Origin: Pseudomonadota bacterium
GTDB taxonomy: Bacteria > Pseudomonadota > Gammaproteobacteria > Acidiferrobacterales > UBA6901
Assembly (NCBI GenBank): GCA_021819085.1
Contig: JAKASJ010000013.1
Span: forward strand, 7,107-71,106
DNA: 64,000 nt
Reading direction: 5' to 3'
In this document: positions 10,043 to 56,863 of the stretch, one piece after another
Layout: every line of letters starts with the position of its first letter
How positions within the stretch are numbered: position 1 is the first letter of the stretch
The notes under the pieces: model-generated
Told to the model about the DNA's origin: nothing
What the model saw: only the letters and a program-made list of their open reading frames with translations
The model's database searches: none
Translations under genes and position numbers: made by a program

Positions 10043-10771
10043 TCAGTCACCACTCCAGTCATGCAGGCGCGCCCTCAGACGCAGCACAGCCTGGCTGTGT
10101 ATCTGGCTGATGCGCGACTCGCTTACCCCCAGGACGGCACCAATCTCCTTCAGGTTAAGCTCTTCATCGTAGTACAGCGCCAGCACCAGTCGTTCGCGCT
10201 CCGGCAGGGAATCAATCGCCTGCACCAGACTGCGGCGGAAATCCTCAGCCTGCATACCCTGCTGCGGGTCCGGTACGTCGGACGGCAGATCTTCGACGAG
10301 CCCGGGTTCATCGTTGCCGACGTCGTCAAGACTGAACAGCCGGCAGCTCGACGCATCTTGGAGAATGCGATGATATTCCTCGAGCGGTATCCCGAGCGCC
10401 TCGGCGACCTCGCTATCTCGCGCGTCCCGCCCGTGCCGGTTTTCAAGCTCGTGAATCGCCTGCGCGACCTCGCGTGCGCGCCGGTGCACCGAGCGCGGAG
10501 CCCAGTCGTTCTTTCGCATTTCATCGAGCATCGCACCCCGGACCCGGATTCCGGCGTAGGTCTCGAAGCTCGCACCCTGGGAAGCATCGTAGTGGCGTGC
10601 TGCTTCCAGCAGGCCGATCATGCCCGCCTGGATTAGGTCATCCACCTGGACGCTGGGCGGAAGCCTGCTGATCAGATGGTAGGCAATGCGCTTCACCAGA
10701 CCTGCGTGCCGGGCGAGAATCTCGTCGAGACCCTCGTCCTGGGTCGCCGCGTATCTGGCCGCGCCACTCAT
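10043..10771 (-). CDS. fliA: Flagellar sigma factor FliA (sigma28)
   Basis: Sigma70-family regions 2-4: LVKRIAYHL..., [53 protein letters not shown]. Confidence 0.9.
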
Positions 10772-11655
10772 GCAACCGCACACGGTTCGCGCCTGCCGAA
10801 GTGGATAAGGCGTTCCACAAAAAACTCGAGATGGCCGCGCGCGGTCTCCGGCATTGGCCAGCTATCTGCCTTCGCTGCCAGGCCCTGGAACGCGACGCCG
10901 GCGCGGCTGCGCGGATAGACATCAACGACCGCACGCTGCTTCTGCACGGCCTTGCGCAGATATTCGTCGTACGGCACCATCCCCAGATAATCGAGCGCAA
11001 CATCCAGGAACCGGTCAGTAACACGCGCGATCTTGTCGAACAGCAGCCGGCCTTCATGAACATTCTTGGCCATGTTCGACAAGACACGGAATCGACTGAG
11101 GCCATAGTCGCGACTCAGCACCTTGATCAATGCATAGGCGTCGGTGATCGAGGCCGGTTCATCGCAAACCACAACGATCACTTCCTGCGAAGCGCGGCAG
11201 TAGCTGATCACACTTTCGGATATACCCGCAGCTGTATCGACCACGAGAACGTCGAGTTTCTGGCCAAGTTCGCTAAAGGCACGAATGATGCCGGCGTGCC
11301 CGGCCTGGCCAAGATCGGCCATTTCCCGCACGCCAGAAGAAGCCGGCACGATCTTGAGGCCTGATGGACCGGTAAGAATGACCTCCTCCAGAGATCGCTC
11401 CCCGTTTATGACATGTGAGAGATTGTAGGCCGGATGCAGCCCGAGAATGACGTCGATGTTCGCAAGTCCGAGATCAGCGTCAAGCAATAGCGTCTCGCGT
11501 CCATTCAGGGCCAGCCCCAGCGCAAGGTTCACCGACACATTCGTCTTGCCAACACCGCCTTTGCCGCTGGTGACCGCGATAACTCGCACCGGCTTCGGGC
11601 GCGCCATGCGACGCAGTCCTGCGGCCTGATCGGCAGTTTGTTCAGACGCACACAT
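10768..11655 (-). CDS. fleN: Flagellar number regulator FleN/FlhG (MinD-like ATPase)
   Basis: Deviant Walker A VTSGKGGVGKTNVSVNLA. Start placed at MCASEQ (GGAGGG Shine-Dalgarno). The ORF-track N-terminal extension overlaps the flhF 3' end. Confidence 0.9.
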   Translation of the reverse strand: MCASEQTADQAAGLRRMARPKPVRVIAVTSGKGGVGKTNVSVNLALGLALNGRETLLLDADLGLANIDVILGLHPAYNLSHVINGERSLEEVILTGPSGLKIVPASSGVREMADLGQAGHAGIIRAFSELGQKLDVLVVDTAAGISESVISYCRASQEVIVVVCDEPASITDAYALIKVLSRDYGLSRFRVLSNMAKNVHEGRLLFDKIARVTDRFLDVALDYLGMVPYDEYLRKAVQKQRAVVDVYPRSRAGVAFQGLAAKADSWPMPETARGHLEFFVERLIHFGRREPCAVA

Positions 11656-20406: not shown

Positions 20407-20422
20407 AGCAAGACGCATGCCA
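20407..20422 (-). promoter_or_regulatory. sigma54 promoter of the fliL operon (TGGCAT-N5-TTGCT)
   Basis: Reverse complement reads TGGCATGCGTCTTGCT. Correct GG-N10-GC spacing, ~37 nt upstream of the proposed fliL ATG. Confidence 0.7.
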
Positions 20423-21878: not shown

Positions 21879-21894
21879 AGCAAAAGGCATGCCA
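21879..21894 (-). promoter_or_regulatory. sigma54 promoter of fliK (TGGCAT-N5-TTGCT)
   Basis: Reverse complement reads TGGCATGCCTTTTGCT. It lies 43 nt upstream of the fliK ATG, just downstream of the receiver pseudogene. Confidence 0.7.
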
Positions 21895-28907: not shown

Positions 28908-30314
28908 CTATCCGGGGATTACAATCCCTTCTTCCCGCAGCCGCGCCAGCTTGTAACGCAGCGTGCGCGGGCTGATCCCGAGGCGCGCGGCCGCCTCCTT
29001 GCGGCTGCCCATGCCGGCTTTCAGCGCTTCCAGGATCAGATTGCGCTCGTGGCTGCGCAGATCATCGCCCAGAGAATCCACGCCTGCCGGCTGCGCCGCC
29101 ACCTTGACTGCGGGCGAATTTGCGGTTGCAGGTGCAACCGCTGTCGCAGCTACGGAATTTTCGAAGCGCAAATCGTGCATTTCGATCCGATCCCCGGAAT
29201 GAAGAATCAGGGCCCGTTGCATCGCATTGTCGAGCTCGCGCACGTTGCCTGGCCAGCCGTGCTGCGACAGACGGTCCATCGCCGCCTGCGATAAATCCGG
29301 AACGTGCCTCCCCTGGGCTGCCGCAGCGCGCGCCAGCAGACAGCGTGCGAGCGGCACGATGTCCTGTGTGCGTTCGCGCAGTGGCGGTATCTGCAGCGGA
29401 AATACGTTCAGCCTGTAAAACAGATCCTCGCGGAAACGCTGGGCTGCAACCTCCTCGCGCATAACCCGGTTGGATGTCGCGAGCACACGGACATCGAGCG
29501 CAACCGGCTTGCGTCCTCCGAGGCGTTCGACCTCCTTTTCCTGCAAAACGCGCAGCAGTTTTGCCTGCAGCGCCAGGTTCATTTCCGATATCTCGTCAAG
29601 CAGCAGCGTGCCGCCCTGGGCCTGCTCGAACTTTCCCGGACTTGCCTGATAGGCCCCTGTGAAGGCGCCCTTTTCGTAGCCGAACAGGATTGCCTCCAGC
29701 ATGTTGTCCGGTATCGCGGCGCAATTGATAGCGATAAACGGCTTGTCGCAGCGGCGCGAGTGGCGATGAAGAAAGCGTGCCAGCACTTCCTTGCCGGTTC
29801 CGCTCTCGCCGCTGATCATTACGGTCGCATCGCTGTCTGCGACGCGCCGTGCGAGTTCGACAAGCTCACGCATGTGCGCATCGGCGGCAACCAGGTCTCC
29901 ATCTGTTGCCGTCGCCGGTAACGCATAGCGTTCCACCATATTGACGAGGACTTCCGCCTCAAAGGGCTTGACAAGGTAATCGGCGGCGCCATCGCGCATC
30001 GCAGCCACAGCGGCCTGAATCGTGCCATAGGCAGTCATCAGCAGCACCGGCGTATTCGGAGAATCTGATTTTACGCGCTGAAGCAAGGCGTTTCCGTCCA
30101 TGCGCGGCATCTGGACATCGGCGATGACCATAGCAATGGCGCCGGTTGCCAGTATGGCGATCGCATCATTCCCGTCGGATGCTGCCGCCACTCCGTATCC
30201 GGCCATTGTCAGCGTGTCGCACAACGCCTCACGCAGCGGCTCATCGTCTTCCACGACCAGCACCGTGGCGCGTGACCGATGCAGGCTATTCGGCAAAGCA
30301 TTGGAGGAACCCAT
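28908..30314 (-). CDS. fleR: sigma54-dependent two-component response regulator FleR
   Basis: Receiver (VLVVEDDEPLR...VIADVQMPRMDG), AAA+ domain ([14 protein letters not shown]) and a C-terminal Fis-type HTH (AAARLGISPRTLRYKL). Confidence 0.9.
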   Translation of the reverse strand: MGSSNALPNSLHRSRATVLVVEDDEPLREALCDTLTMAGYGVAAASDGNDAIAILATGAIAMVIADVQMPRMDGNALLQRVKSDSPNTPVLLMTAYGTIQAAVAAMRDGAADYLVKPFEAEVLVNMVERYALPATATDGDLVAADAHMRELVELARRVADSDATVMISGESGTGKEVLARFLHRHSRRCDKPFIAINCAAIPDNMLEAILFGYEKGAFTGAYQASPGKFEQAQGGTLLLDEISEMNLALQAKLLRVLQEKEVERLGGRKPVALDVRVLATSNRVMREEVAAQRFREDLFYRLNVFPLQIPPLRERTQDIVPLARCLLARAAAAQGRHVPDLSQAAMDRLSQHGWPGNVRELDNAMQRALILHSGDRIEMHDLRFENSVAATAVAPATANSPAVKVAAQPAGVDSLGDDLRSHERNLILEALKAGMGSRKEAAARLGISPRTLRYKLARLREEGIVIPG

Positions 30315-31585: not shown

Positions 31586-31647
31586 ACAATTCCTGCTCCG
31601 GCTTCGTCTTAACACCTGGACCTAGGCGGCCCCCTGAAGCGATGTCA

Positions 31648-31662
31648 GCAAGAACTGTGCCC
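31648..31662 (-). promoter_or_regulatory. sigma54 promoter of fleSR (GGGCAC-N5-TTGCT)
   Basis: Reverse complement reads GGGCACAGTTCTTGC(T). It lies in the 94-nt fleQ-fleS gap. Confidence 0.7.
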
Positions 31663-31709: not shown

Positions 31710-33140
31710 TCACGTCAAAATCCCGTCGTCGGATTCCCGTGCAACCACTTCGTATTTGCGCAGCTTTTCCACCAGCGTCGTGCGCCCGAGCCTGAGGCGC
31801 TTCGCAGCCTGGGCCACGACGCCGTCGGCCTCGTCGAGCGCTTGCTTGATCAGGCTGTACTCGAGGTTGTTCAGGTGCTCTTTGAGATCGAGCCCCTCTG
31901 CCGGCAGGCGCATGACCGCGGCAAAGACGGCCGCACTGCTGTCAGAAGCAGGTGGCGCTGGGTTGCGAGCCGCCCCGGGGGCAAGGAATTTATCCGGCAG
32001 ATCACCGGTATCTACTGACCCGCTGGGATGCAGAATTGCCAAACGCTCCATCAAATTGGCGAGCTCGCGCACATTGCCCGGCCAGGAGTACTGGGTCAAA
32101 GCCACAACCGCAGCTGGAGTCAGGCGCACCGATCCGCGTCGCTCATGCTCGATACGCGCAATCAATTCATTGATCAGCAGCGGTATGTCCTCGACACGCT
32201 CGCGCAGCGGCGGCATTTCTATCGGAAAAACATTCAGCCGATAGAACAGGTCCTCGCGGAATTTTCCATCCTTGATCGCCTCTTCGAGATTGCGGTGGGT
32301 GGCAGCGATGATGCGCACGTTGGCGCTGATGCTCTTGTTGCTGCCGACACGTTCAAAGGTCCGCTCCTGCAGTACGCGCAGCAGCTTCACCTGCATTGGA
32401 AGGCTCATGTCGCCGATCTCGTCCAGAAACAGCGTGCCATCCTCGGCCAGCTCAAACCTGCCTTGACGTGCGCTTATGGCACCGGTGAATGCTCCCTTCT
32501 CGTGTCCAAACAATTCGCTTTCCAGCAGGTCGCCCGGAATCGCACCGCAGTTGATTGGTACAAACGCCCGGCTTCGGCGCGCTGAATTGTAGTGCAGGTT
32601 GCGCGCAACCACCTCCTTGCCGGTTCCGGACTCGCCCAGAATCAGCACATTGGCCTCGGAATTGGCCACTTGCTCGATCAGCCGGCGCACACGCATCATC
32701 GCGCGACTGTTCCCTACCAGACTGCGGAACAATTCCAGAGGCCGCTGCGTGCCGGACCGGCTGCGGGATTCGCGATAGATCTCGGCCTGGTGAAGGGCGA
32801 AAGCAAGTTGCTGGTAGCGGATCGGCATATCAATGTTGCCTAATACACCCGCGGCGACTTGCGGATTCACTGGCACATTTCTGGCCTTGTCCGTCACCAG
32901 CAACACCGGGAGATCCTGATCCCATTCCCTGAGTTCCTGGATTAGATCCAACCGGACCTCTTCGGACTCGCACCCGCCGATGATCGCCGCCAGCGCTGAT
33001 TGATGCCGGCCAGCAGCCTCGCGCCAGCAGGTCCAGTCGTCAACTGCAACTGCCTGGTGGTCGATGAACTCAATCAGGGTGGCGAGATAGCTTCGGCGCT
33101 CTGCATCGGAGTCGATAACCAACACGGCCGGTCCACCCAT
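31710..33140 (-). CDS. fleQ: Flagellar master regulator FleQ (sigma54 enhancer-binding protein)
   Basis: Non-phosphorylatable FleQ-type N-domain, AAA+ domain ([14 protein letters not shown]) and an HTH ([16 protein letters not shown]). The residues reported to bind c-di-GMP are present (LFRS, KEVVARN, EDLFYR). Confidence 0.9.
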
Positions 33141-33292: not shown

Positions 33293-33308
33293 AGCAACGT
33301 CTGTGCCA
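33293..33308 (-). promoter_or_regulatory. Consensus sigma54 promoter upstream of fleQ (TGGCAC-N5-TTGCT)
   Basis: Reverse complement reads TGGCACAGACGTTGCT, ~153 nt upstream of the fleQ ATG. Confidence 0.65.
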
Positions 33309-35014: not shown

Positions 35015-37183
35015 CTAACCACCAAGCTTCGTACTGCTCGGTCCAGACTGACCGCCCGAATTGGACCACGGCAACGCCGCCAGCTCGTTGGTAAGGAGGG
35101 AGCCCGTCGAATTGAGCTGGCCGACCAAGCTGTCCATGGCGTTGAATTCTTGGTAATACATTGCCTGTTCGTTGGCTATCTGCTGGTTCAGCTGACTGAT
35201 CTGATTGTTGATACCAGTGATAGTATTGTTGATGCCCGCAGTGCGGGCGGCAATGGGGCCAGTGCTGCCGAGCATCTGCGTCGCGAGATTGCTGAGCTGG
35301 TAGGCATAGCCTTGGGAATAGCCCACGGTACCCCTTGCGCCGGTCGATCCTCCGTTGACCTGCAGCTGCAGGCCATCCACCGGCGTACCGCTGGCGCCGG
35401 TCAGATTCTGTCCCGACCCGCTCGCGGCATATCCGTCAATCGTACCCGCCACATCGACCCCGGCAGTTCCCGAAGCAACGCCAAGACCGAGCGTGCTGCC
35501 TGTATTTGTGCCAGCGGAAGTGATGCTCACGTTCGATGCCGAACCATACTGGTTGGACGTGATCACGAACTGCGATCCGGTGCTGTTGTAGGAAACCGAC
35601 ACCGCCGCGCCAGCCGCCTTGAGCGCACTGTCGCCATTGATCTCCGACTGGATTTCGGACACCAGGCTCGCCACCGTGGTGTACGTGCCCTGGTTGAGGG
35701 TGATGGTGCCACTCTGCACCCCGTTTACCGTGATGCCGAAGGTGTTGTTGTTTGAGTTCAAAACGACTGGCGAGTTAAAAGTACCCCCGGTGCTGGCCAA
35801 CGCAGAGCTGGAGGTTCCCGTGAGACTGCCCTGCGTCGCCAGCTGCGTGACATTGACCGCGTAACTGCCGGGCCGAGTATTGGCCCCGCTGCCCACATAA
35901 CTGATCTGGCCGTCGCTTGGAACACCCTGTGCGGCGAACAGGCCTGCTACCCCGCTGAAGTTGCTGGTTAGAGCCGATTGCAACTGAGACGTATTCAGCT
36001 GAAGGGTCCCGTCCGACTGCACCGTCACCCCGATCTGAGACAGATTGCTGAAGCCGCTTCCGAGACCGGACAGACCCTGATCCAGGGTATCCTGGATCTG
36101 CGTCAGGACTGACATCGTCGAGGCATCGCCCTGCAGCGGCCCCGCAGTCTTGGTAGCCGCATCATAGGCCGTCATGGCACTTACGGAATTGAACAGGGTG
36201 TTGTAGGCGTTTACGAAGTTGGTGACTGCCGTCGTGGCAGCCGTCGTGTCCTGAGACACCGTCAACGTAGTAGGCGACCCGGCCGTATTGGTCGCCAGCA
36301 GGTTGAGGGTGACGCCCTGGATTGCACTGGAGACCGTATTGGTCGAATTCGTGATGTTGACGCCATCAACGGACAGGGCGGCATTCTGGGCGGCAACGGT
36401 CTGAGTCAGGTTCTGGCCGCTGCCCGAGACCGCGGTCGGATCATAGGCAAGCTGCGACAGCCCGGTCATATTGGTGTTGGTTCCGTCGCCGTCGTTCACC
36501 GTGACCCGCAGGCTGTTGGCAGCGCCGCTCGTCTTCGAGGTCAGCACCAGCCGGTTGCCGGTACCGTCGTTGAGAATCGACGCACTCACACCGACATTGG
36601 CGGCATTGATCGCCGAGGCGATGCCACTCAGAGTGTCGTTCGAGCTGTTGATGACTACCGAACCGGACGGCTGCGAATTGTTGAGCGTGAAAGTGTTGCT
36701 GCCGCTGTCGTAGGTGCCGAACTGGAATGTCAGGGTACCGGTCCCGACGGTGTCCGAGGTATTGGCGAAATCGCTCGACACCAGTGACTGCGCCTGCGCC
36801 AGCTGGTTCACCTGGACGGAATAATTGCCCGCAACCGCGTTGCCCGCCACGGTGGCGCTGAAGTGCGATGTATCCGATGTTGCAGAAGTCATCGTCTGAA
36901 AATTCGAAATTCCACTCAAGCCCTGCATTGACGCCTGGAAAATCGAAAGGGAGCTTTGGAGCTGTCCATAGGCTGACAGTTGCGCCTGGTAGCCCGCCTC
37001 CTGAGTCTGAAGGGTCTGGACCGGAATGCTGTCCGCGGCAACCAGTGCGCTCACCAGACTGTTGACGTTGATACCGGAACCGAGCCCGGTGGACGTGAGT
37101 ATCGCCGCACCCGTACCGCTCAATGAGGGGGCAGTGCTTCCTCCCGAAGAAGACGTTGTTCCCGTAGGCAGAACTGTGGACAT
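35015..37183 (-). CDS. fliD: Flagellar filament cap FliD (unusually long, 722 aa)
   Basis: N-terminal FliD_N (GLGSGINVNSLVSALVAADSIPVQTLQ) and C-terminal FliD_C (AMYYQEFNAMDSLVGQLNSTGSLL). The enlarged middle carries flagellin-IN-like modules. Confidence 0.9.
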   Translation of the reverse strand: MSTVLPTGTTSSSGGSTAPSLSGTGAAILTSTGLGSGINVNSLVSALVAADSIPVQTLQTQEAGYQAQLSAYGQLQSSLSIFQASMQGLSGISNFQTMTSATSDTSHFSATVAGNAVAGNYSVQVNQLAQAQSLVSSDFANTSDTVGTGTLTFQFGTYDSGSNTFTLNNSQPSGSVVINSSNDTLSGIASAINAANVGVSASILNDGTGNRLVLTSKTSGAANSLRVTVNDGDGTNTNMTGLSQLAYDPTAVSGSGQNLTQTVAAQNAALSVDGVNITNSTNTVSSAIQGVTLNLLATNTAGSPTTLTVSQDTTAATTAVTNFVNAYNTLFNSVSAMTAYDAATKTAGPLQGDASTMSVLTQIQDTLDQGLSGLGSGFSNLSQIGVTVQSDGTLQLNTSQLQSALTSNFSGVAGLFAAQGVPSDGQISYVGSGANTRPGSYAVNVTQLATQGSLTGTSSSALASTGGTFNSPVVLNSNNNTFGITVNGVQSGTITLNQGTYTTVASLVSEIQSEINGDSALKAAGAAVSVSYNSTGSQFVITSNQYGSASNVSITSAGTNTGSTLGLGVASGTAGVDVAGTIDGYAASGSGQNLTGASGTPVDGLQLQVNGGSTGARGTVGYSQGYAYQLSNLATQMLGSTGPIAARTAGINNTITGINNQISQLNQQIANEQAMYYQEFNAMDSLVGQLNSTGSLLTNELAALPWSNSGGQSGPSSTKLGG

Positions 37184-37739: not shown

Positions 37740-39884
37740 TTATTTCAACAGAGCCAGAATCGTTTGCGGCTGCGCGTTGGCCTGGGCCAGCATCGCAATA
37801 CCCGCCTGCTGCAGCACTTCGGCACGAGTCAGATTGGCCGTCTCGGCCGCGAAGTTTGCATCCTGAACGTTGCTGCGCGCTGCCGTCTGATTGTCCACCG
37901 CCGTCTGAAGATTGGCGGAAATCAGCTGGAAGCGGTTCTGAATGGCACCGAAAGTCGCCTGGAGATTGTCGACCGACTGCAACGCCGAATCCACACGCTT
38001 GATCGTGTCATTGGCGGCCGCCACTGTCGACACATTGACGCTGCTCAGCGTCGTAGCATCCTGGGCAATGGTGTAGTCGGTCGCCGTTCCCGACGACCCG
38101 CCAAAACCGAGGTCATTGGCCTGGCCGGTGATCACGATGTTGTTGGTGGCGCTCAGGGACAGCGTTCCGGTCACGTCACCACCGACCGAGGTGGCACCAC
38201 CCGTATCCACCGCCGTTTTGGTCCATCCACTGGCACCAGCGGTCGTCGCATATGTAGCACCGGTGGTAATGTTGTAGATCTCCCCGCTGGCATAGGTGCC
38301 GGTAGCCGAAGAGGAGCCAAAGGCCGCGGTGATGGCTTGCGCATTCGCCGAAGTCAGCACGATATTTCCGCTGGAATCAACGCTTGCGACAACGTTCACG
38401 CCACTCGTGAGATTGATCGCGGTTGCGAGCTCGGAAGCCGTGATCTGGCCAGCCGAGTCGGCAGCGACAGTGATGTTCGTGCCGTTAATGGTTCCCACCG
38501 AGTATGAATCAGTTGCAGTGAGCCCGGAAACCGTAGAGAACGGCGATGACTGCACGATCGGACTCCAGGTGGGGTCGCCGCCGCTGGCCCCGCTCGGTAC
38601 GCCTTCCGCCGCCGTGATCGCAGCCCCGCTCTTTGACGAGAGCGTGAGGTTGCCGGAGGCCGAGTTGTAGCTTGCTGTGACGCCGGCTGCTGCCAGCGTG
38701 GCATTGGTATTGATCGCCGACGCAACCTGAGATCCCGTGACCGAACCGCCCGTAGGAGCAACAGCGATATTGGTGCCATTGACAGTCACGTAAAAGTCGT
38801 TCGTTCCAAGACCGGTGACCGTGGTGAATGCCGATGCCCAGTTGTTGCTGGCGGTTGTGCCGCCCGCCAGGCTCGCCAGATTCGCAGCACCACCGGTAGC
38901 ACCGCCGCCCAGGGTCTGGCTGGCGATAATGTCACGTCCATCCGCCGCGGTGAGCGTCATCTGACCGTTGGCGGAGTTGAACGTTGCGGTGACGCCTGTC
39001 GAGTTCGAGTAGGTGTTGATCTGGTTCGCGACGTCGCTCCCGGTGAGCGGGCCGTTGCCATACAGATCGTAGTTCGAGTAGATGGTTTGACCGTTGATGG
39101 TCAGGTTATAGGTATTACCTGCATTGCCTGAGGTCGTCGTGAAAGCCGTCGTCTCGCTGGTGCTGGCGGTCGCGGTCAGCCCCTCGACACCCGAGTTGTT
39201 GATCGCTGTGGCCTTGGCAAATGCGCTGTAAGACGTCTCGCCGGCGGCTGCGCCTGCCGGTCCGGCGACCGACGCGGCAATCGTCATTGCAGGATTGCTG
39301 CCGATCTGTATCGTCTCGGTCCCACTCAGCGCTGTCGTCGACACTGCCGTGCCGGTGGCGTCGGCGATCTGGCCGATCTGGTCGGTCCGTACACCGGTGC
39401 TCAGGTTGACATTGATGGTCTGGCCGGCATTGGCACCCACCTGGAACTGGGCATTGCCGAAGCTGCCGTCGAGAAGATTCTGGCCGTTGAACGAGGTCTG
39501 GGTCGCAATCTGGTTGATTTCCGCGATTTGCTGCTGCACTTCCTGGTTGAGTGCCGCGCGATCGGTCGGGGAATTGGAGGCGTTCGCCGATTCCACGGCA
39601 AGCTGGCGGACAGTCTGCAGGGCATTCGTGATCTGGGTCAGGGCGCCGTCGGCCGTCTGGGACAGCGATGTGGCGTTGTTGACGTTCTGGACCGCCTGGT
39701 TCAGACCGTTGACCTGCGTGGTCAACAGATTGGCAATTGCGAGGCCGGCCGGGTCGTCGGCAGCGCTGTTGATACGCAGGCCCGAGGACAGGCGCTGCAT
39801 TGCCGTCGCCAGCGCGCCCTGGGTATTAGCGAGATTGGTCTGGGCATTGAGCGACAGCATGTTGGTATTGATGACTAAGGGCAT
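37740..39884 (-). CDS. fliC: Flagellin FliC (giant, 714 aa)
   Basis: Conserved D0/D1 ends (MPLVINTNMLSLNAQ...RLSSGLRINSAADDPAG; ...IQNRFQLISANL...AEVLQQAGIAMLAQANAQPQTILALLK). The ~400-aa central region contains three ~100-aa periodic modules. Confidence 0.95.
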   Translation of the reverse strand: MPLVINTNMLSLNAQTNLANTQGALATAMQRLSSGLRINSAADDPAGLAIANLLTTQVNGLNQAVQNVNNATSLSQTADGALTQITNALQTVRQLAVESANASNSPTDRAALNQEVQQQIAEINQIATQTSFNGQNLLDGSFGNAQFQVGANAGQTINVNLSTGVRTDQIGQIADATGTAVSTTALSGTETIQIGSNPAMTIAASVAGPAGAAAGETSYSAFAKATAINNSGVEGLTATASTSETTAFTTTSGNAGNTYNLTINGQTIYSNYDLYGNGPLTGSDVANQINTYSNSTGVTATFNSANGQMTLTAADGRDIIASQTLGGGATGGAANLASLAGGTTASNNWASAFTTVTGLGTNDFYVTVNGTNIAVAPTGGSVTGSQVASAINTNATLAAAGVTASYNSASGNLTLSSKSGAAITAAEGVPSGASGGDPTWSPIVQSSPFSTVSGLTATDSYSVGTINGTNITVAADSAGQITASELATAINLTSGVNVVASVDSSGNIVLTSANAQAITAAFGSSSATGTYASGEIYNITTGATYATTAGASGWTKTAVDTGGATSVGGDVTGTLSLSATNNIVITGQANDLGFGGSSGTATDYTIAQDATTLSSVNVSTVAAANDTIKRVDSALQSVDNLQATFGAIQNRFQLISANLQTAVDNQTAARSNVQDANFAAETANLTRAEVLQQAGIAMLAQANAQPQTILALLK

Positions 39885-39993: not shown

Positions 39994-40020
39994 TTATCGG
40001 AGGCTAGGAGAAAAACTTTA
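39994..40020 (-). promoter_or_regulatory. sigma28 (FliA) promoter of fliC: TAAAGTTT-N11-TCCGATAA
   Basis: Reverse complement reads TAAAGTTTttctcctagccTCCGATAA. This gives a leader of ~100 nt. Confidence 0.8.
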
Positions 40021-43380: not shown

Positions 43381-44253
43381 TCATCCTTTTATCGGCATTT
43401 TCCCGGTCGACTTTAGGCTGGCAATCGCGTTGCGCAGCGTCCCTCCGGACAATACCGCCTGAATTTCGCGGGCATAGCCGGGATCCGTGGCGTAGCCGGC
43501 CTTTTGCAGCGCGTCGACGAAGGCGGCCGGATCATTGGCACTCTTCAGCGCCTGCGTATAGCGCGGATTGGTCTTCAAAAACTGCACATAGTCACTGAAA
43601 CTCTGCGCGTAGGAACCGTACACGCGGAACGCGGCCGCGCCCCGCTTTGCCACACCGTCCACATACTCGAGCGTCGGTACAGTGGCGCTAGGTCCGCTCC
43701 AGCTTGCATCGGCCTTGATGCCGAAGAGATTGTAGCTGGAGGTACCATCTGGCATCTGCGCAATCGATTGCCCCCAGCCGGTTTCGTGCGCTGCCTGTGC
43801 AAGCAGCACGGCCGCAGACACGCCGACCGCGCGCGCGGCATGTACGGCCTCGGGCCACAGTGTGCGCACGAATTTCCGGGGGTCCGCCGCCGAAAACGAG
43901 GCCGCATTCGTTTTTGTTGGTGCCTCTGGCTTGCCCGAGCTCTGCGCCGCACCGCCGAGCTGCTTGACCAGCATGTCTGCCAGACCCAGACCGCGTCCTT
44001 GAGAAAGAAGAAGCGCAAGCTGATTGTCATAAAGGTCCTGGTAGAAACTGACCTGCTTTCCGCCGAACAGTGGATCGCCGAAATTCGCCTTGCGCATGCT
44101 CTTGAGCATCATCTGCGTAAACAGGGCCTCGAACTGGCTAGCCACCTCGCGCAGATTCTGCTTGGTGTCGCCATCCCGCCTGACGGCCGCACTCAACTGA
44201 TCCAGGCCCTGCAGGTTGGTGTAGACGCTTGCGTCGGGTATCGAATCAACCAT
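43381..44253 (-). CDS. flgJ: Rod-binding / peptidoglycan hydrolase FlgJ
   Basis: N-terminal rod-binding domain (FEALFTQMMLKSMR) and a C-terminal glucosaminidase domain (LLAQAAHETGWGQS...YNLFGIK...YATDPGYA). Confidence 0.9.
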   Translation of the reverse strand: MVDSIPDASVYTNLQGLDQLSAAVRRDGDTKQNLREVASQFEALFTQMMLKSMRKANFGDPLFGGKQVSFYQDLYDNQLALLLSQGRGLGLADMLVKQLGGAAQSSGKPEAPTKTNAASFSAADPRKFVRTLWPEAVHAARAVGVSAAVLLAQAAHETGWGQSIAQMPDGTSSYNLFGIKADASWSGPSATVPTLEYVDGVAKRGAAAFRVYGSYAQSFSDYVQFLKTNPRYTQALKSANDPAAFVDALQKAGYATDPGYAREIQAVLSGGTLRNAIASLKSTGKMPIKG

Positions 44254-50686: not shown

Positions 50687-50702
50687 AGCAATGCGCGTGC
50701 CA
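50687..50702 (-). promoter_or_regulatory. Consensus sigma54 promoter of the flgB operon (TGGCAC-N5-TTGCT)
   Basis: Reverse complement reads TGGCACGCGCATTGCT, ~40 nt upstream of the flgB ATG. Confidence 0.8.
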
Positions 50703-50922: not shown

Positions 50923-51786
50923 TCAGACGTGATGATGCTGGACGCGCGCCGGATGTCTCTTAAGTCGGTAGACGATCCCCTCTGGAAATCGCAGCATATC
51001 GAAAGCATCGGAATAATTGGCGAGCGACTCCGCCGACCCGAGGATAAGGTAGCCATCAGGAAGGAGCAATGATGCAATCCGGGTCAGGATGTCACGCTTC
51101 AGACTGGATGAAAAATAGATCAGCACATTGCGACAGAATATCAGATCGAACTTCCCCAATGCCTGGAAATTCTGGCACAGGTTGAGCTCCCTGAAACTCA
51201 CACGCTGGCGCACCTCTCGGTTGACCTCCCATTGGCCGCCGCGTGCCGTGAAAAAGCGGCTGCGACGCTCGGGTGTCAGCCCGCGTGCCATGGCTGCCGC
51301 ATCATAGATGCCGGACTCTGCCTGCTTGAGCACAGACGGCGAAATGTCGGTGGCAACGATCTGCACATCAGCTGCCACTTTGCCGGGATTCAGCAGTACA
51401 AGCTCGTGCAATGCCATGCTGATCGAATACGGCTCCTGCCCGGTGGAACATCCTGCCGACCACACTCGCAGCCGTGCGGAACGGGACTTGGCCAGGCCGG
51501 GAAGAATCACGGTCTTGAGCAGTTCGAAAACCGTGCCATCGCGAAACCACGAAGTTTCGTTGGTGGTCATTGCATCGATGACTCGGTCGCGCAACCGTAC
51601 GTCCGTCCCGATCTTCAGACGCACAAGCAGTTCGCGCAGCGAGGGCAGACCAGCCTCGGCAAGCAGTGGGCTCAGCCGGCTGCTGACGAGATAGTGTTTG
51701 TTATCGCCAAGCATGATGCCGCAGGCCTCCTCCAGAAACGCCCGGAAGCCGTCATAATCCTCGGAAGTCATACCCGCATTGGTCAC
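50923..51786 (-). CDS. cheR: Chemotaxis methyltransferase CheR
   Basis: ETSWFRD..., the SAM-binding motif RVWSAGCSTGQEPYS, and IFCRNVLIYF. A TATAAT hexamer lies at 51805-51810 upstream. The start (GTG 51786 or ATG 51771) is uncertain. Confidence 0.9.
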   Translation of the reverse strand: MTNAGMTSEDYDGFRAFLEEACGIMLGDNKHYLVSSRLSPLLAEAGLPSLRELLVRLKIGTDVRLRDRVIDAMTTNETSWFRDGTVFELLKTVILPGLAKSRSARLRVWSAGCSTGQEPYSISMALHELVLLNPGKVAADVQIVATDISPSVLKQAESGIYDAAAMARGLTPERRSRFFTARGGQWEVNREVRQRVSFRELNLCQNFQALGKFDLIFCRNVLIYFSSSLKRDILTRIASLLLPDGYLILGSAESLANYSDAFDMLRFPEGIVYRLKRHPARVQHHHV

Positions 51787-51937: not shown

Positions 51938-52873
51938 TCACGCGCTGCCAGGGGGGGAAGAGATATCCATCTGGTCCAGCACAGCACGCGCCAGATCATC
52001 CGGATGGAACTTCGGAAGGAATTGGTCTGCCCCCACATGCTTTGCCATGGTATCGTTGAAATTTCCGCTCAGCGATGAATGCAGAATCACATGCAGCGAC
52101 TTTAGGCGCTCATCCCTCTTGATCTCTCTGGTCAACGTATAGCCGTCCATTTCCGGCATTTCGATATCCGTAACCACCAGCGCCAGGCGCTCTCGGACCG
52201 GTGTGCCTTCGCTCGCCCACTGCTGCAGCAGTGTCAGGCCTTCACGCCCGCTGGAAGCCAAAACGCAGCGGATGCCGATTTGTTCAAGCGTACGGGCGAT
52301 CATGTTGCGTGCGACGCTGGAGTCGTCCACGACCAATATCGGCAGACGTTCGCCCCCGCCCGTGCCACGGCCTGCCAGTTCTCCGGACACCGCGAGATTC
52401 GATGGACAGATTTCCGACAGGACCTTCTCCACATCGATGATCTCGATGATGCTGTCGTCGACCTGGGTGATTGCCGTGATGTAGCTCGCCGCACCGGCAG
52501 CCGGCGGTGGTTGGACCTGTTCCCAATTCATATTCACGATGCGATCGACACCGGTCACCAAAAAACCCTGGATGGATTGGTTGAATTCGGTAACCACGAT
52601 AAACAGTCCACGGACATCCTCCGGTAGCGGCTGCCCGATCACCCGACCCATGTCGATTACCGGTAGCGTGCGGCCCCGAACATGGGCAAGCCCGCGCACG
52701 CCGTGATGGCCGTATGGAATCGAGCGCAGCGACGGACATTCGAGAACTTCGCGCACCTTGAACACATTGATTCCATAGCGCTGCCGGCCGCCGATGCGGA
52801 ACAACAGCAATTCCAGGCGGTTGCGACCCGCCAACTGCGTTCGCTGATCGACGGTATCAAGTACGCCTGCCAT
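51938..52873 (-). CDS. cheV: CheV (CheW domain fused to a receiver)
   Basis: CheW-like N-domain (LELLLFRIGGRQRYGINVFKVREV) and a C-terminal receiver (ILVVDDSSVARN...LVVTDIEMPEMDG). Confidence 0.9.
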   Translation of the reverse strand: MAGVLDTVDQRTQLAGRNRLELLLFRIGGRQRYGINVFKVREVLECPSLRSIPYGHHGVRGLAHVRGRTLPVIDMGRVIGQPLPEDVRGLFIVVTEFNQSIQGFLVTGVDRIVNMNWEQVQPPPAAGAASYITAITQVDDSIIEIIDVEKVLSEICPSNLAVSGELAGRGTGGGERLPILVVDDSSVARNMIARTLEQIGIRCVLASSGREGLTLLQQWASEGTPVRERLALVVTDIEMPEMDGYTLTREIKRDERLKSLHVILHSSLSGNFNDTMAKHVGADQFLPKFHPDDLARAVLDQMDISSPPGSA

Positions 52874-52898
52874 GATTCCTCCCGGGGTATTTAAGTCC

Positions 52899-52925
52899 GT
52901 ATCGGCCGAATGCCATCCGGCTTTA
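52899..52925 (-). promoter_or_regulatory. sigma28 promoter of cheV: TAAAGCCG-N11-GCCGATAC
   Basis: Reverse complement reads TAAAGCCGgatggcattcgGCCGATAC. It ends 26 nt upstream of the cheV ATG. Confidence 0.65.
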
Positions 52926-52945
52926 GCCTATCTTTTCTGCTTTCT

Positions 52946-52961
52946 AGGCACGCCAATTGCA
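52946..52961 (+). promoter_or_regulatory. sigma54 promoter upstream of the soluble MCP-flgA pair (AGGCAC-N5-TTGCA)
   Basis: AGGCACGCCAATTGCA with correct GG-N10-GC spacing, 85 nt upstream of the MCP ATG. Divergent from PcheV. Confidence 0.6.
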
Positions 52962-53045
52962 TATTCGCGATGACCAGGGGCTGCGAGCACAGGTTCATGT
53001 CCGCGGTGACAAGCCCCCTTTAGCCGCAGGTAATCGGAGCAATTC

Positions 53046-54392
53046 ATGGCGCAACCGCTACTCCTAACAAAACAGGCCATTCCTTTGCTGGAATCAGCCC
53101 TGGCTTCGAACCACCAGCAACTCAGCCGCTTGGCGCGTCAGCATCGTGGCACCGCCAAATCCTTGACGCCCGTCACGGAGGCGCTGATCACCAACAACAG
53201 AAAATTGGTGGAAATCGGACGTAACGGCGCCGACATTCTGGATCAGGCCGTAAACATTCTTTCAAAGAACGGGGCCTTTAGCCGTGAAGTCCGTCACATC
53301 ATGGACAACGTAACGAGCGTGGCTACTGCGGTGGAGGAAATGGCGGCCACAGCGACGGAGATTTCCCGCACCGCACAGCAAGCGGCCAAGCGCGCTGAGG
53401 AGAGCAGCACCAAGGCAGCCACTGGCAACGAAAACATCTCTTCGCTCGTGGGCGATATGGATCAGCTCGAACTCGCCATCAAATCCATGGCCGACGGCAT
53501 GCATCAGTTCGTCGGGTTCAGCCGCGAGATCAACAAGCTCACGGCGATCGTGCGCGACATTGCCCATCAAACAAACCTGCTGGCACTAAATGCGGCAATC
53601 GAAGCGGCTCGGGCCGGCGAAGCCGGGCGCGGCTTCGCCGTGGTTGCTGACGAAGTGAAGAAACTCGCCGACAAGACTGCGCAGGCGACTACGGAGATCG
53701 AATCAGTAACCAATACGATGAATGCCCTGTCCGAGCAGGTAGGAAGCTCGGTGAGCACCAGCCTCGACCGTCTCAGCAAGAGCATCAATGCCCTTGATAC
53801 GGTTGCCTCGGTGCTTGCCGAAGGCAACAGCGTCGTGCGCGACGTAAGCGACAGGGTGCATCAGATCGCGGTCGCGGCCGAAGAACAGAGCGCGGTATCA
53901 AGCGAGATGGCCAACAACCTGGCTGCCGTCACTTCGGCACTGAACAGCGAGAATCATCAGGTCGTTGCGGTGAGCAAGCATGCCCACAGTCTTACGGAAA
54001 TCGCCGGACACCAGGCGGATCTGCTGGCCGATTTCGGACAGGACGAGGTTTTGCTGCAGGCGGCAAAATCCGATCACCTGGCTTGGAAAGCCCGCCTGTC
54101 CGAGGCGGTGATCGGCGAGAATGGCCTGACGGAAAACGAAATCCAGGATCCCGGAACCGGACGCCTGGAACGCTGGTGTCAGGACAAGCAGCAACAATAC
54201 GGCCAGCTGTCGGGATTTCGCGCCCTGACAGAACCGCGTAACCGGCTGCAAACCATGGGCGCTGAGATCCTGAAATTGTCATCGGCAGGCGATTTCCAGA
54301 AGGCAATGGTGAAGCTGCAGGAAACGGATCCAGTCACACGCACGCTGTTTGATGCGATTGACCAGCTTGGCCATGAAGTCCGAGAGGGTTGA
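53046..54392 (+). CDS. Cytosolic methyl-accepting chemotaxis protein with a C-terminal CZB-like domain
   Basis: No hydrophobic TM segment. MCP hairpin tip [38 protein letters not shown]-terminal ~110 aa begin [12 protein letters not shown] (CZB HxxxW signature). Confidence 0.85.
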
Positions 54393-54398
54393 TCGGCA

Positions 54399-55115
54399 AT
54401 GACCGCCAGAGGAATGATCACATTGGTACTGCTTCTGCTGGGGTCAGCTTGCATTGTCGCTCGGGCCCAGGATGCGGCAGGTCCCCATCAGAGTCTCAGA
54501 TCAATACGTACGGCTGTCGGGGATTTTCTGGCTAGGCAAAATTCCTACAGCCCGCGGCGTTCGAAAATTGTGGTTGGCCGCCTTGATTCGCGTCTGCGCC
54601 TGGCAGCCTGCAATCGACCTTTGCGGACCTCTTTCCCACCGGGAGCGGGAGCGATTGGAGAGACCACTGTTGGTGTGCGCTGCACCGGGAGCCGGCCCTG
54701 GTCGCTCTATGTTCCGGCGACGGTGCAGGTATTTGACAAGGTTCTGATTGCAGCACGGCCTCTCGTCCGCGGCGCCCGTCTAATTCCGGCGGACTTCATC
54801 GTCTCGGAGCGCGACGTGAGCAGCCTAACGGCAGGCTATGTATCCAACCCGCTTCGGGTAAACGGCGAAGTGCTACGGCAACCGCTCACGGCCGGGACAG
54901 TGCTTCTCCCGGATATGATGCAAGGTCAGCGTCTGGTGCGCCGCGGCATGCCGGTAACAATCGTTGCCGAAGTCGGAGGGCTGAAGGTGCGCGTGCAGGG
55001 GCGTGCGTTGGGTGACGGAGCAGCCGGACAATGGGTGCGGGTACGTAACTCCATGTCCAACAAGGTGATAGAGGGCGTCGTGACCCACGACGGCTCAGTA
55101 CGGGTACCGATGTGA
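54399..55115 (+). CDS. flgA: P-ring assembly chaperone FlgA
   Basis: Signal peptide (ITLVLLLLGSACIVARA), and a C-terminal SAF/FlgA region ending GQWVRVRNSMSNKVIEGVVTHDGSVRV. It starts 6 nt after the MCP stop. Confidence 0.85.
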   Translation: MTARGMITLVLLLLGSACIVARAQDAAGPHQSLRSIRTAVGDFLARQNSYSPRRSKIVVGRLDSRLRLAACNRPLRTSFPPGAGAIGETTVGVRCTGSRPWSLYVPATVQVFDKVLIAARPLVRGARLIPADFIVSERDVSSLTAGYVSNPLRVNGEVLRQPLTAGTVLLPDMMQGQRLVRRGMPVTIVAEVGGLKVRVQGRALGDGAAGQWVRVRNSMSNKVIEGVVTHDGSVRVPM

Positions 55116-55139
55116 TTGGCGTATATGGCAATGTTGGCC

Positions 55140-55166
55140 TAAAGTTTGGGGAAATTCGGCCGTTAA
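55140..55166 (+). promoter_or_regulatory. sigma28 promoter of flgMN: TAAAGTTT-N11-GCCGTTAA
   Basis: TAAAGTTTggggaaattcgGCCGTTAA, ending 28 nt upstream of the flgM ATG. Confidence 0.75.
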
Positions 55167-55193
55167 CTAAGCCAGGATTCAGGAGAAACAGTC

Positions 55194-55520
55194 ATGGCTA
55201 TTGAAATCAACGGCTTGCCGTCGCCCCAGGCCAAAATTGCCGGTGAGGGGTCGCAGACCAAGGCCGGACAGCAGGAAGCCGGTGCAACCCCATCGGGGCA
55301 GCCAAATACACCAACCGCCGACACTGTCAGCCTCACGGGTACGGCGACGCACCTCAAGACCTTGGAAGCGGTGATGGCATCATTGCCGGTCGTGGACAGT
55401 CAGCGCGTGGAACAGCTGCGCCAATCTGTCTCTAGCGGTACATACCGTGTCGATAGTCAGCGCGTTGCCAGCAAGCTCGTATCCTTCGAAAACCGGTTGC
55501 ACGGCAAGGGGAAGGCCTGA
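55194..55520 (+). CDS. flgM: Anti-sigma28 factor FlgM
   Basis: 108 aa. C-terminal VDSQRVEQLRQSVSSGTYRVDSQRVASKLVSFE is typical of FlgM. Confidence 0.8.
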   Translation: MAIEINGLPSPQAKIAGEGSQTKAGQQEAGATPSGQPNTPTADTVSLTGTATHLKTLEAVMASLPVVDSQRVEQLRQSVSSGTYRVDSQRVASKLVSFENRLHGKGKA

Positions 55521-55525
55521 GCTAC

Positions 55526-56002
55526 ATGACACAACCCGGCTTATCCGAACTGTTCGAGGCTGCGCTCTGCGATACCGCGCTGCTTCTGGCCACATTGCAG
55601 GAGGAATTTAGGGCGTTATCCAGGCCCGATGCCGTCACGATCGAGGAAATCGTTGCGCGCAAGCGCGAACTTATCGCGAGACTCGAAGATGAGCCGGCCC
55701 GGCGTGCGGTGATGCTGCGTGCCGCCGGCTACGCTGACGGCACGGCAGATATGCGAGAGTGGCTGGGCCAGGTTGACAACACACCCGACCACCGGATTTT
55801 GCGGCTGTGGCAGGACTTTACTGTCATGCTTCGCAAGTGCCAGCAACAGAACCAGATCAATGGTCGTGTGATTGATGTCAACCGTCGTCGTGTTCATGAT
55901 GCGCTATGCATTCTCCGCGGGACTGAACTCGATTCCGGACTTTACGATCCGCGCGGGTCAACTCAGGCACCTGGTGCGTCGCGCCCGATCACCACGGCAT
56001 GA
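55526..56002 (+). CDS. flgN: FlgK/FlgL chaperone FlgN
   Basis: 158-aa helical protein directly after flgM, with FlgN-like N-terminal heptads (LLLATLQEEFRALS...IVARKRELIARLE). Confidence 0.7.
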   Translation: MTQPGLSELFEAALCDTALLLATLQEEFRALSRPDAVTIEEIVARKRELIARLEDEPARRAVMLRAAGYADGTADMREWLGQVDNTPDHRILRLWQDFTVMLRKCQQQNQINGRVIDVNRRRVHDALCILRGTELDSGLYDPRGSTQAPGASRPITTA

Positions 56003-56026: not shown

Positions 56027-56863
56027 GTGGCCGTGCTCGGTCTGCCACACGGAGCTGACCGCCGGCATGCGCTGTGTTTCGCATGCACGGATGCTGCTGA
56101 TCACACTGGAACTACCTTGAGCGACGAGCTGCCAGATCCCTTCCAGGAGTACTCACCTGAGATTGAGAGGATCTCATTTGCACCGCAGATCACGAGCCTG
56201 CTGCGACGCATCCGGGAGACCCGCTCGCTGCTGAGCGTCACCGTGGCTGGATCAGGCGAGCTCTACAACAGTGCTATCGTGGAGGTCGATGCCGAGCTCG
56301 GCTGCGTGCTGCTCGATGAATTGACACCTGTTGAAGGCCACATGCGCCTGTTGCAAAGTCGGGCATTGCATGCGCATGCGCGCCTGCGCGGCGTTGATAT
56401 CAGCTTCGCCGGCACACTTCAGGAAGCCGGCGAAAAGGACGGAATCGCCTTCTACAGGCTGCCTATACCGGCCCTGGTCAACTACCGGCAGCGACGCGCC
56501 AACTTTCGGGCACGCGTGGGCATGGGCATTCCGGTGCCGATAGGTCTTGGAAGCCGGCATATCGCAGAATTAGATGGCACATTGTACGATATTTCCATCG
56601 GGGGTGTCGGTGCGCTTGTTCGGGCTGGAAGCATGGCAGAGCTGCACCAAGGCTCGGTATTCGAGCGGTGCAACATCCGTTTGCCGAAAGGACATGAGAT
56701 CAGCTGCGGTCTGGAAATCCGCTATGTCAGTCACGACGAACGCCGTCATGCACTGCGAATCGGCGGACGTTATGTCGACCTTGGTCGCGCTCAGGAAAAA
56801 ATTGTCGAGCATTTCGTGGCTGCGCTGGAGCGCGAGCTTCTGCGCAAGATGCCGAAGGACTGA
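56027..56863 (+). CDS. flgZ: YcgR/FlgZ-type c-di-GMP flagellar brake (PilZN + PilZ)
   Basis: Canonical PilZ motifs RRANFR (RxxxR) and DISIGGVG (DxSxxG). The flgM-flgN-flgZ order matches Pseudomonas. The start codon is uncertain (GTG 56027 or downstream). Confidence 0.85.
   Translation: MAVLGLPHGADRRHALCFACTDAADHTGTTLSDELPDPFQEYSPEIERISFAPQITSLLRRIRETRSLLSVTVAGSGELYNSAIVEVDAELGCVLLDELTPVEGHMRLLQSRALHAHARLRGVDISFAGTLQEAGEKDGIAFYRLPIPALVNYRQRRANFRARVGMGIPVPIGLGSRHIAELDGTLYDISIGGVGALVRAGSMAELHQGSVFERCNIRLPKGHEISCGLEIRYVSHDERRHALRIGGRYVDLGRAQEKIVEHFVAALERELLRKMPKD

Follow-up and report, generated by a model that had tools for sequence, protein, structure and literature searches.

A soluble chemoreceptor whose CZB-derived domain has lost three zinc-ligand residues, encoded ahead of flgA in a gammaproteobacterial flagellar cluster

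'TlpD-like' soluble chemoreceptors are the commonest architecture among proteins with a chemoreceptor zinc-binding (CZB) domain, making up 45.6% of them, and the 3His/1Cys zinc motif of CZB domains has been described as ubiquitous, with a universally conserved Cys (PMC8262984). Every mechanism proposed for the domain runs via this zinc site, be it zinc sensing, oxidation of the Cys by hypochlorous acid (HOCl), or zinc acting as a redox second messenger. What becomes of such a receptor when the ligands are gone? Here we describe mcp (53046..54392, plus strand), a gene in a 64,000-nucleotide stretch of contig JAKASJ010000013.1 (assembly GCA_021819085.1) from a Pseudomonadota bacterium of the Acidiferrobacterales; this whole stretch is referred to as the window. 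The gene encodes a 448-aa soluble methyl-accepting chemotaxis protein (MCP) of TlpD/McpA-like architecture. Its C-terminal, CZB-derived domain retains one of the four zinc-ligand residues, and the gene lies between a sigma54-type promoter element and flgA, which encodes the P-ring chaperone.

Helicobacter pylori TlpD is, like the window protein, soluble, and in both a methyl-accepting (MA) signalling hairpin leads into a C-terminal four-helix bundle of the CZB fold. In TlpD, two CZB domains straddle the MA coiled coil and the C-terminal bundle is structurally integrated (10.64898/2026.01.16.699579); without its last 45 aa TlpD neither localises to the pole nor functions, although it still binds CheW and CheV1 (PMC13001251). 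TlpD interacts with coupling proteins of the CheW/CheV type, and a cheV gene adjoins mcp in the window. The zinc site of TlpD is a complete 3His/1Cys site essential for sensing, whereas the window protein keeps the first His only. TlpD also carries an N-terminal PAS domain, which the window protein lacks and which is absent as well from Salmonella McpA and from most TlpD homologues outside Helicobacter (10.64898/2026.01.16.699579). Finally, TlpD has no canonical methylation sites and its host has neither CheR nor CheB, whereas the window protein has a methylation-consensus site and both cheR and cheB are present in the cluster.

The closest architectural model is McpA of Salmonella Typhimurium (10.64898/2026.07.03.735341), an MCP that is likewise gammaproteobacterial and cytoplasmic, ends in a CZB domain and lacks a PAS domain. 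Redox and zinc taxis through McpA need the zinc-binding Cys, and the same position is Gly in the window protein; McpA, unlike the window mcp, is not reported in a flgA operon. In Escherichia coli DgcZ, whose zinc ligands include His22, Cys52 and His83 (Perkins 2021), the CZB domain (3T9O, 4H54) has a Cys and two distal His where the window protein has Gly, Arg and Gln at the aligned positions.

For the gene order, the closest described system is the flgAMNZ operon of Pseudomonas putida KT2440, which has a primary FleQ- and sigma54-dependent promoter, PflgA, with internal promoters before flgM and flgZ, and which lies divergent from cheV-cheR with its FliA-type promoter (10.1101/2021.08.29.457346). 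The window shares with it the order flgA-flgM-flgN-PilZ, divergent from cheV-cheR-flgBCDE, a sigma54 promoter motif before the operon, sigma28-type motifs before flgM and cheV, and the regulators FleQ, FleSR and FliA in the same cluster. It differs in that the window and at least 11 related loci place a 448-aa MCP gene between the sigma54 promoter and flgA, and its regulation is deduced from motifs alone. The window arrangement is the P. putida flgAMNZ layout with one gene added in front.

Loss of zinc-ligand residues in one clade of soluble receptors

The mcp open reading frame (ORF) encodes the 448 aa that an earlier reading of this DNA (the original prediction) had assigned to it, and the claim that the product is a soluble MCP stands. 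Pfam gives MCPsignal (PF00015, E=1.9e-41) and matches neither HAMP nor PAS, and no transmembrane segment is apparent, the maximum Kyte-Doolittle value over 19 residues being 0.88. Sequence matches in the PDB are to MCP cytoplasmic domains, with E-values down to 2e-31. A full-length AlphaFold 2 (AF2) model, with a predicted local distance difference test score (pLDDT) of 84.7, is an all-helical hairpin and bundle: two short N-terminal helices, a hairpin (helices 34-189 and 191-328) and a bundle at 333-447. In Foldseek searches this model matches solely MCP cytoplasmic domains, including 2CH7, 3ZX6 and 1QU7. Each arm of the hairpin has about 20 heptads, from which the receptor appears to fit the 40H class, as is typical for flagellar chemotaxis of this type, and the residues of the hairpin tip are nearly all invariant in alignment A1, D202 being the single variable one.

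Along the gene, codons 1-85 (53046..53300) specify an N-terminal region without any Pfam match, modelled as short helices and an extension of the first long helix, with no PAS or HAMP domain. The MA domain follows at aa 86-330 (53301..54035; best Pfam stretch 115-297) and holds one methylation-consensus site, at aa 93. The CZB-derived four-helix bundle occupies aa 333-447 (54042..54386). A protein identical to the product of the window mcp is annotated in metagenome-assembled genomes (MAGs) labelled 'Acidiferrobacterales bacterium'.

Is the C-terminal bundle a CZB domain at all? The PF13682 profile scores 17.9 bits on the protein (E=0.0039), below its gathering cut-off of 29.4, over aa 344-408 and profile positions 1-63 of 64. 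The match extends over nearly the whole profile. Precomputed PF13682 matches are present in orthologues of 83% identity or less and absent from the four degenerate cluster representatives. Shared descent with canonical CZB domains is indicated by full-length orthologues (44-83% identity) that occupy the same genomic position and have the intact set of ligands (HCHH). A profile of the family's C-terminal domain also matches the CZB domain of DgcZ (3T9O, E=1.1e-6), the sole protein represented by a CZB structure in the PDB copy searched, and its ligand columns align with conserved His, Cys, His and His there. AF2 predicts aa 326-448 (123 aa) as four helices (7-31, 47-60, 64-88 and 92-122) at a pLDDT of 88.2, from an input alignment dominated by intact CZB domains.

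The CZB motif is reportedly, after Draper et al. 2011, Hxx[WFYL]-x21-28-Cx[LFMVI]Gx[WFLVI]-x18-27-HxxxH. What remains of it in the window protein is H344-x2-W347 together with W377; the Cys has become Gly372, the Gly of the motif Glu375, and the two distal His Arg398 and Gln402. The codons are cac for H344 (54075-54077), gga for G372 (54159-54161), cgt for R398 (54237-54239) and caa for Q402 (54249-54251). The original prediction had three of the four ligands replaced and H344 alone kept, which the orthologue alignment and the profile alignment to DgcZ bear out; it had also placed a displaced Cys at 378, which is indeed there (tgt). Its description of the N-terminal motif as HxxxW was mistaken, the sequence being HxxW (H344, W347).

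To place these changes within the family, the full-length relatives found in a first protein search (about 449 aa) were aligned. Across the 118 sequences the four ligand columns read H/C/H/H in 113, and the window protein reads H344/G372/R398/Q402. Besides the window protein itself (P0001), the exceptions are P0002 (88% identical; HGRQ), P0004 (82%; HGLQ), P0005 (81%; HDRQ) and an unrelated partial case of 421 aa, P0102 (H/S/Y/H). Another unrelated family member, P0142 (447 aa), has a single ligand change (H/C/N/H). A wider HMMER search, with aa 326-448 as query against 1.84 billion cluster representatives (clustered at 50% or less), returned 421 relatives at E<=0.001. Among the best 150 of these, 146 were new, of which 144 read HCHH, one HCNH and one was truncated. 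With 144 of 146 distant relatives intact, ligand loss is rare, in agreement with the 'ubiquitous 3His/1Cys' motif and 'universally conserved Cys' of the literature (PMC8262984). Isolated single or double substitutions occur elsewhere, and triple loss was found only in the clade of the window protein.

Several other readings of the pattern were rejected. H/G/R/Q is carried by all eight other sequences in the 90% cluster of the window protein, which come from NCBI, Logan, ENA and JGI assemblies, and identical residues from four independent sources rule out an assembly error. Retention of the ligands at shifted positions is ruled out by the alignment with close relatives, which is free of gaps around the four columns and anchored to DgcZ. 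C378 as a compensating ligand is ruled out by its column, which is Cys also in the intact P0006, P0009, P0012 and P0022 and Arg in P0004.

When were the ligands lost? In a neighbour-joining tree the four degenerate representatives form one clade, whose sister, P0003 (83% identical), is intact (HCHH); P0006 is the next outgroup. That the degenerate sequences share one clade with an intact sister implies that the loss was single and recent. The clade comprises the window's 90% cluster together with P0002, P0004 and P0005, 12 sequences, all of which have H344, Q402 and an acidic residue at 375, with G372, R398 and C378 each present in 11. The lineage of P0001-P0005, the intact P0003 included, is shorter by one residue and has already lost second-shell features, namely the His of 'DHTQC', the Gly of CxLGxW and the Tyr after the Trp (auxiliary positions His369, Gly375 and Tyr378). 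Because this second-shell loss predates the loss of the ligands, the zinc site was eroded stepwise.

The window domain is, from its ligand residues, very unlikely to coordinate zinc in the canonical way. Could a metal still be held by other side chains, such as H344, C378 and the acid at 375, with or without Q402, leaving a zinc or redox sensor of altered affinity? H344 is invariant in the clade, C378 is nearly so at 11/12, and carboxylate and amide side chains can coordinate zinc. We nevertheless regard this as improbable: no compensatory gain is seen, the Cys at 378 being shared with several intact relatives and replaced by Arg in P0004; three simultaneous losses and a cationic Arg within the site argue against a cation site; and the surveys that call the 3His/1Cys motif ubiquitous and its Cys universally conserved (PMC8262984) speak against it as well.

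One member of the clade stands apart. P0005 (locus L009, 1530-2807) has an in-frame deletion of 21 aa, equal to three heptads, in the C-terminal arm only of the MA hairpin. Such a deletion should break the helix register; either the receptor is truly defective in that MAG, or the deletion is an artefact of the 3-kb contig.

The putative mcp-flgA unit and its conservation

The sigma54-type -24/-12 element before mcp, AGGCAC-GCCAA-TTGCA at 52946..52961 (plus strand), has the exact consensus core and ends 84 nt upstream of the mcp ATG. The exact pattern GGCACG-N4-TTGCW occurs just twice in the 64 kb, here and at 50687-50701 (minus strand) before flgB. At the site corresponding to the element before mcp, GGCA(C/T)-N5-(T/A)TGC is kept in 12/12 orthologous loci, whose proteins are 44-100% identical, and the rest of the spacer has diverged; the element is thus a phylogenetic footprint. 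The flgA gene (54399..55115, plus strand; PF13144, PF17656, TIGR03170) follows closely. Its ATG at 54399 lies 6 nt after the mcp stop, and the gap is the same in seven of the 12 loci, the window included; it is 11-12 nt in two and 0 nt in L004, and the genes overlap by 4 nt in L005 and L006. The signal peptide of FlgA begins at the proposed ATG, a GAGAGGG ribosome-binding site lies within the 3' end of mcp, and the FlgA of L001, L007 and L008 aligns with residues 1-238 from this very start, the first eight residues being conserved.

Motif scans of the plus strand between 52962 and 55139 gave no sigma70-, sigma54- or sigma28-like motif, and no plus-strand terminator; an Rfam scan of 52700-55300 found nothing relevant in the 5' untranslated region or at the junction. 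Co-transcription of mcp and flgA is strongly implied by these features. An alternative, bearing on the operon claim only, is that the sigma54 promoter serves mcp alone or that flgA is expressed mainly from a promoter inside the 3' end of mcp. The internal promoters of P. putida flgAMNZ suggest that such elements are common in clusters of this type. The empty motif scans, the lack of a terminator, the spacing of 6 nt here and of 0 nt or a 4-nt overlap in L004-L006, and a gene order conserved in all loci that are long enough to reveal it make it doubtful in our view, and we give it little weight.

On the other side of the intergenic region, a sigma28-type promoter motif (TAAAG-N14-GCCGATA, 52900..52925, minus strand) is an exact pattern match that precedes the divergent cheV-cheR and is kept in close loci. 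The original prediction had read the region as a sigma54 element at 52946-52961 driving an operon with flgA, whose ATG follows 6 nt after the mcp stop, and a sigma28-driven divergent cheV. Each of these elements was recovered, the -24/-12 conservation in 12/12 loci and the tight spacing lend support to the putative operon, and the separate promoter between mcp and flgA that would have spoken against it did not appear in the motif scans. A second sigma28-type match, TAAAGTTT-N11-GCCGTTA with one mismatch, lies upstream of flgM at 55140..55165 (plus strand) and was absent from that prediction.

How widespread is this arrangement? The order cheR-cheV, divergent from mcp-flgA-flgM-flgN-PilZ, is found in every related locus long enough to show it, and the taxon names on the family matches are Acidiferrobacterales, Chromatiales and Thiohalospira. 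Having the receptor gene first is an old feature, shared across the family in these Gammaproteobacteria, most of them uncultured, and ancestral to a large family whose CZB domains are intact. The ligand loss is young and confined to one sub-clade, so that gene arrangement and ligand loss are two independent facts of different age. The original prediction had called the arrangement unfamiliar from model systems. The placement of mcp ahead of flgA is real; the setting is less exotic than was thought, flgA-flgM-flgN-PilZ following as in P. putida flgAMNZ. A genome scan with generic MCP hairpin-tip peptides returned 80 unrelated MCP loci (L010-L089), none with flgA adjoining a CZB-MCP, and no flgA was found near the distant CZB-MCPs of Magnetospirillum, Desulfobacterium and Kurthia. 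In the literature searched, neither a degenerate or zinc-free CZB domain nor a receptor-first flgA operon was described.

Some related loci carry features of their own. The intact-CZB clade (P0012, P0008, P0022) has extra genes beside cheV, none of them in the window: a 521-aa PAS-MCP between cheV and cheR in L003 (3098-4663), and in L091 (748-1155) and L092 (747-1154) a rhodanese-domain gene followed by another MCP. In L003, a 364-kb contig that encodes the intact-CZB orthologue P0012, flgA at 7360-8104 is split into two called ORFs (158 and 96 aa) whose tblastn pieces lie in different frames, the result of either a frameshift or a sequencing error.

Constraint on the ligand-less domain and its possible role

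If the zinc site is gone, is the domain a relic? We estimated dN/dS by the Nei-Gojobori method among four degenerate genes (window, L007, L008 and L009) and among four genes of a comparably diverged intact clade (L003, L090, L091 and L092). In the degenerate clade, dN/dS is 0.17-0.29 (mean 0.231) for the CZB-like domain, 0.014-0.045 for the MA domain and 0.07-0.15 for the N-terminal region. The corresponding values in the intact clade are 0.16-0.30 (mean 0.217), 0.05-0.14 and 0.15-0.33. In absolute terms, the ligand-less domain is constrained as much as an intact CZB domain and is far from neutrality. Being still constrained, it is not a relic. Free drift after ligand loss is likewise rejected at the codon level (0.231 vs 0.217 intact), despite an apparent acceleration at the protein level.

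These values bear directly on the possibility that the receptor is decaying, sensing having been lost and the C-terminal domain, then the whole gene, heading towards a pseudogene. As such decay would have it, no other part of the protein evolves as fast as the domain, and P0005 carries its deletion in the MA hairpin. Set against this are the dN/dS of 0.17-0.29 for the domain and about 0.035 for the MA domain, a full-length, intact ORF in 11/12 degenerate sequences from independent assemblies, and the retention of synteny and promoter, and we consider decay very improbable.

We lean towards reading the CZB-like domain as a module that does not depend on zinc and that serves the structure, or sets the signalling state, of a receptor still working in other respects. 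The protein would be a cytoplasmic receptor of the TlpD/McpA type, with an N-terminal helix, an MA hairpin that would dock CheA, CheW and CheV, and a C-terminal CZB bundle, descended from a receptor that presumably sensed via a 3His/1Cys zinc site. The Cys would have changed to Gly and the distal His to Arg and Gln in an ancestor that the window organism shared recently with a few close relatives among the Acidiferrobacterales, and with these ligands the canonical zinc and redox switch has most likely been lost. The bundle would have been retained by purifying selection as an integral structural part of the receptor dimer; such selection on a ligand-less bundle may be explained if, by analogy with TlpD, the bundle belongs to the structural core of the receptor. 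It could fix the membrane-distal end of the hairpin, that is, the end of the coiled coil, in one signalling conformation and support placement in the array or at the pole. The MA domain would have kept its full function and could still be methylated by the CheR and CheB encoded nearby.

The gene itself would be the first cistron of an mcp-flgA-flgM-flgN-flgZ operon, read from a sigma54 promoter activated by FleQ or FleR. The receptor would then be made with the early flagellar structural genes, ahead of the sigma28-dependent cheV-cheR, and flgMN would be expressed from their own sigma28 promoter as well.

A number of observations weigh against this reading. When its dN/dS is scaled to that of the remaining domains, the CZB-like domain shows about 2-2.5 times less constraint than its counterpart in the intact clade: CZB dN/dS divided by MA dN/dS gives 6.6 in the degenerate clade vs 2.6 in the intact one, and CZB divided by the N-terminal region 2.2 vs 0.9. 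At 90-93% MA identity, domain identity is 57% in degenerate pairs vs 78% in intact pairs. With constraint thus relaxed in relative terms, some function may have been lost without replacement. The estimates are rough, dS in the degenerate clade being 0.4-1.2 and near saturation, so that omega is if anything overestimated there; a modest loss of constraint on the domain is possible. On the structural side, the AF2 fold was predicted from an alignment mostly of intact CZB domains, and Foldseek searches of the C-terminal model against the PDB returned generic four-helix bundles alone (E>=0.08), with no DgcZ in the top 50. H344, together with the conserved Q402, E/D375 and C378, could yet form some binding site. 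Lastly, promoter use, activator identity and transcript extent are read from motifs and synteny.

Might the domain instead have become a sensor for something else? A pocket remodelled around H344, E/D375, R398 and Q402 could, without zinc, bind another cue, for example an anion or small metabolite that matters to a bacterium oxidising sulfur or iron. The replacement residues are conserved (Q402 and the acid at 375 in 12/12 sequences, G372 and R398 in 11/12), H344 is retained, and the absolute dN/dS equals that of intact CZB domains. The pocket is, however, not invariant, P0004 having Leu at 398 and P0005 Asp at 372; the acid at 375 is already present in the intact P0006; and the domain is less tightly constrained when set against the remainder of the protein. 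We hold a new sensory role to be unlikely, though it deserves more credence than the retained metal site or gene decay.

The structural reading can also be taken further. In a natural zinc-free CZB domain, side chains would replace the metal cross-link, Arg398 taking the place of the cation and pairing with the newly acidic residue 375, Gln402 and His344, and the receptor would be locked in one state. Made from the early (class II/III) sigma54 promoter of flgA before the sigma28-dependent che genes, it might seed or scaffold the polar chemosensory array without being a sensor itself. This is a long shot, to be entertained with considerable reserve. If true, the salt bridge of Arg398 would represent an evolutionary swap of metal for salt bridge and a sensor turned assembly factor.

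Neither the loss of the zinc site nor the position in the operon overturns current understanding. The chief value of the system is that a CZB domain which has most likely become zinc-free in nature can be compared with an intact sister: the ligand-less clade and its 83% identical intact relative constitute a natural experiment that sets zinc-dependent sensing against a zinc-independent structural, localisation or state-setting role. The position of the family as first gene behind a sigma54 promoter is an arrangement undescribed in model organisms, and in a sizeable group of sulfur-oxidising Gammaproteobacteria a cytoplasmic receptor appears to be wired to the early flagellar regulon rather than to the late sigma28 chemotaxis class.

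Neighbouring genes and other features of the window

Between 49.8 and 56.9 kb, the window has flgC, flgB, cheR and cheV on the minus strand and mcp, flgA, flgM, flgN and a PilZN-PilZ gene on the plus strand. On the minus strand, cheV (51938..52873) encodes a CheW domain and a receiver domain (PF01584, PF00072), and cheR (50923..51786; PF01739, PF03705) a methyltransferase. Downstream of flgA on the plus strand lie flgM, for the anti-sigma28 factor (55194..55520; PF04316, E=1.7e-15), flgN (55526..56002; PF05130, E=2.2e-22) and the gene for the FlgZ/YcgR-like PilZN-PilZ protein (56027..56863; PF07317, PF07238). The listed GTG start of the last gives 278 aa, compared with 241-261 aa in its orthologues, so the true start probably lies about 30 codons downstream. 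That start would leave a gap of about 100 nt after flgN, as in related loci, and P. putida has an internal flgZ promoter there.

The remainder of the window is a supercluster for a polar flagellum and chemotaxis. It encodes FleQ (31710-33140, minus strand), FleS, FleR (28908-30314, minus strand), FliA (10043-10783, minus strand), FleN, FlhF, FlhA and FlhB, and also CheZ, CheA, CheB, MotA/B, a ParA-like protein and CheW. It is a four-tier, sigma54- and sigma28-dependent system of the Pseudomonas/Vibrio type. The che/mot cluster has at its edge a gene for a GGDEF diguanylate cyclase of 306 aa (193-1113, minus strand); the PilZN-PilZ (FlgZ-like) effector of cyclic di-GMP is at the opposite end.

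The second exact sigma54 consensus, GGCACGcgcaTTGCT at 50687-50701 (minus strand), overlaps the first codons of the listed 144-aa flgB ORF, which has a TTG start at 50691. On account of this overlap the real flgB start should lie downstream, probably at the ATG of MPISINQ, and the element is the predicted flgBCDE promoter. Four sigma54-type elements with one mismatch occur on the strand of the flagellar genes, at 20407-20421, 21879-21893, 31647-31661 and 33293-33307 (all minus), and are probably other class II/III flagellar promoters; those at 31647 and 33293 flank the FleQ gene. Two more sigma28-type matches are found at 43390-43415 and 39995-40020 (both minus), one exact (TAAAGTCGACCGGGAAAATGCCGATA) and one with a single mismatch. 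The match at 39995-40020 is just upstream of the flagellin gene ending at 39884 (37740-39884, minus strand), which encodes 714 aa with a Flagellin_IN motif. Both this flagellin and the cap protein FliD (722 aa; 35015-37183, minus strand) are unusually long for a gammaproteobacterial polar flagellum.

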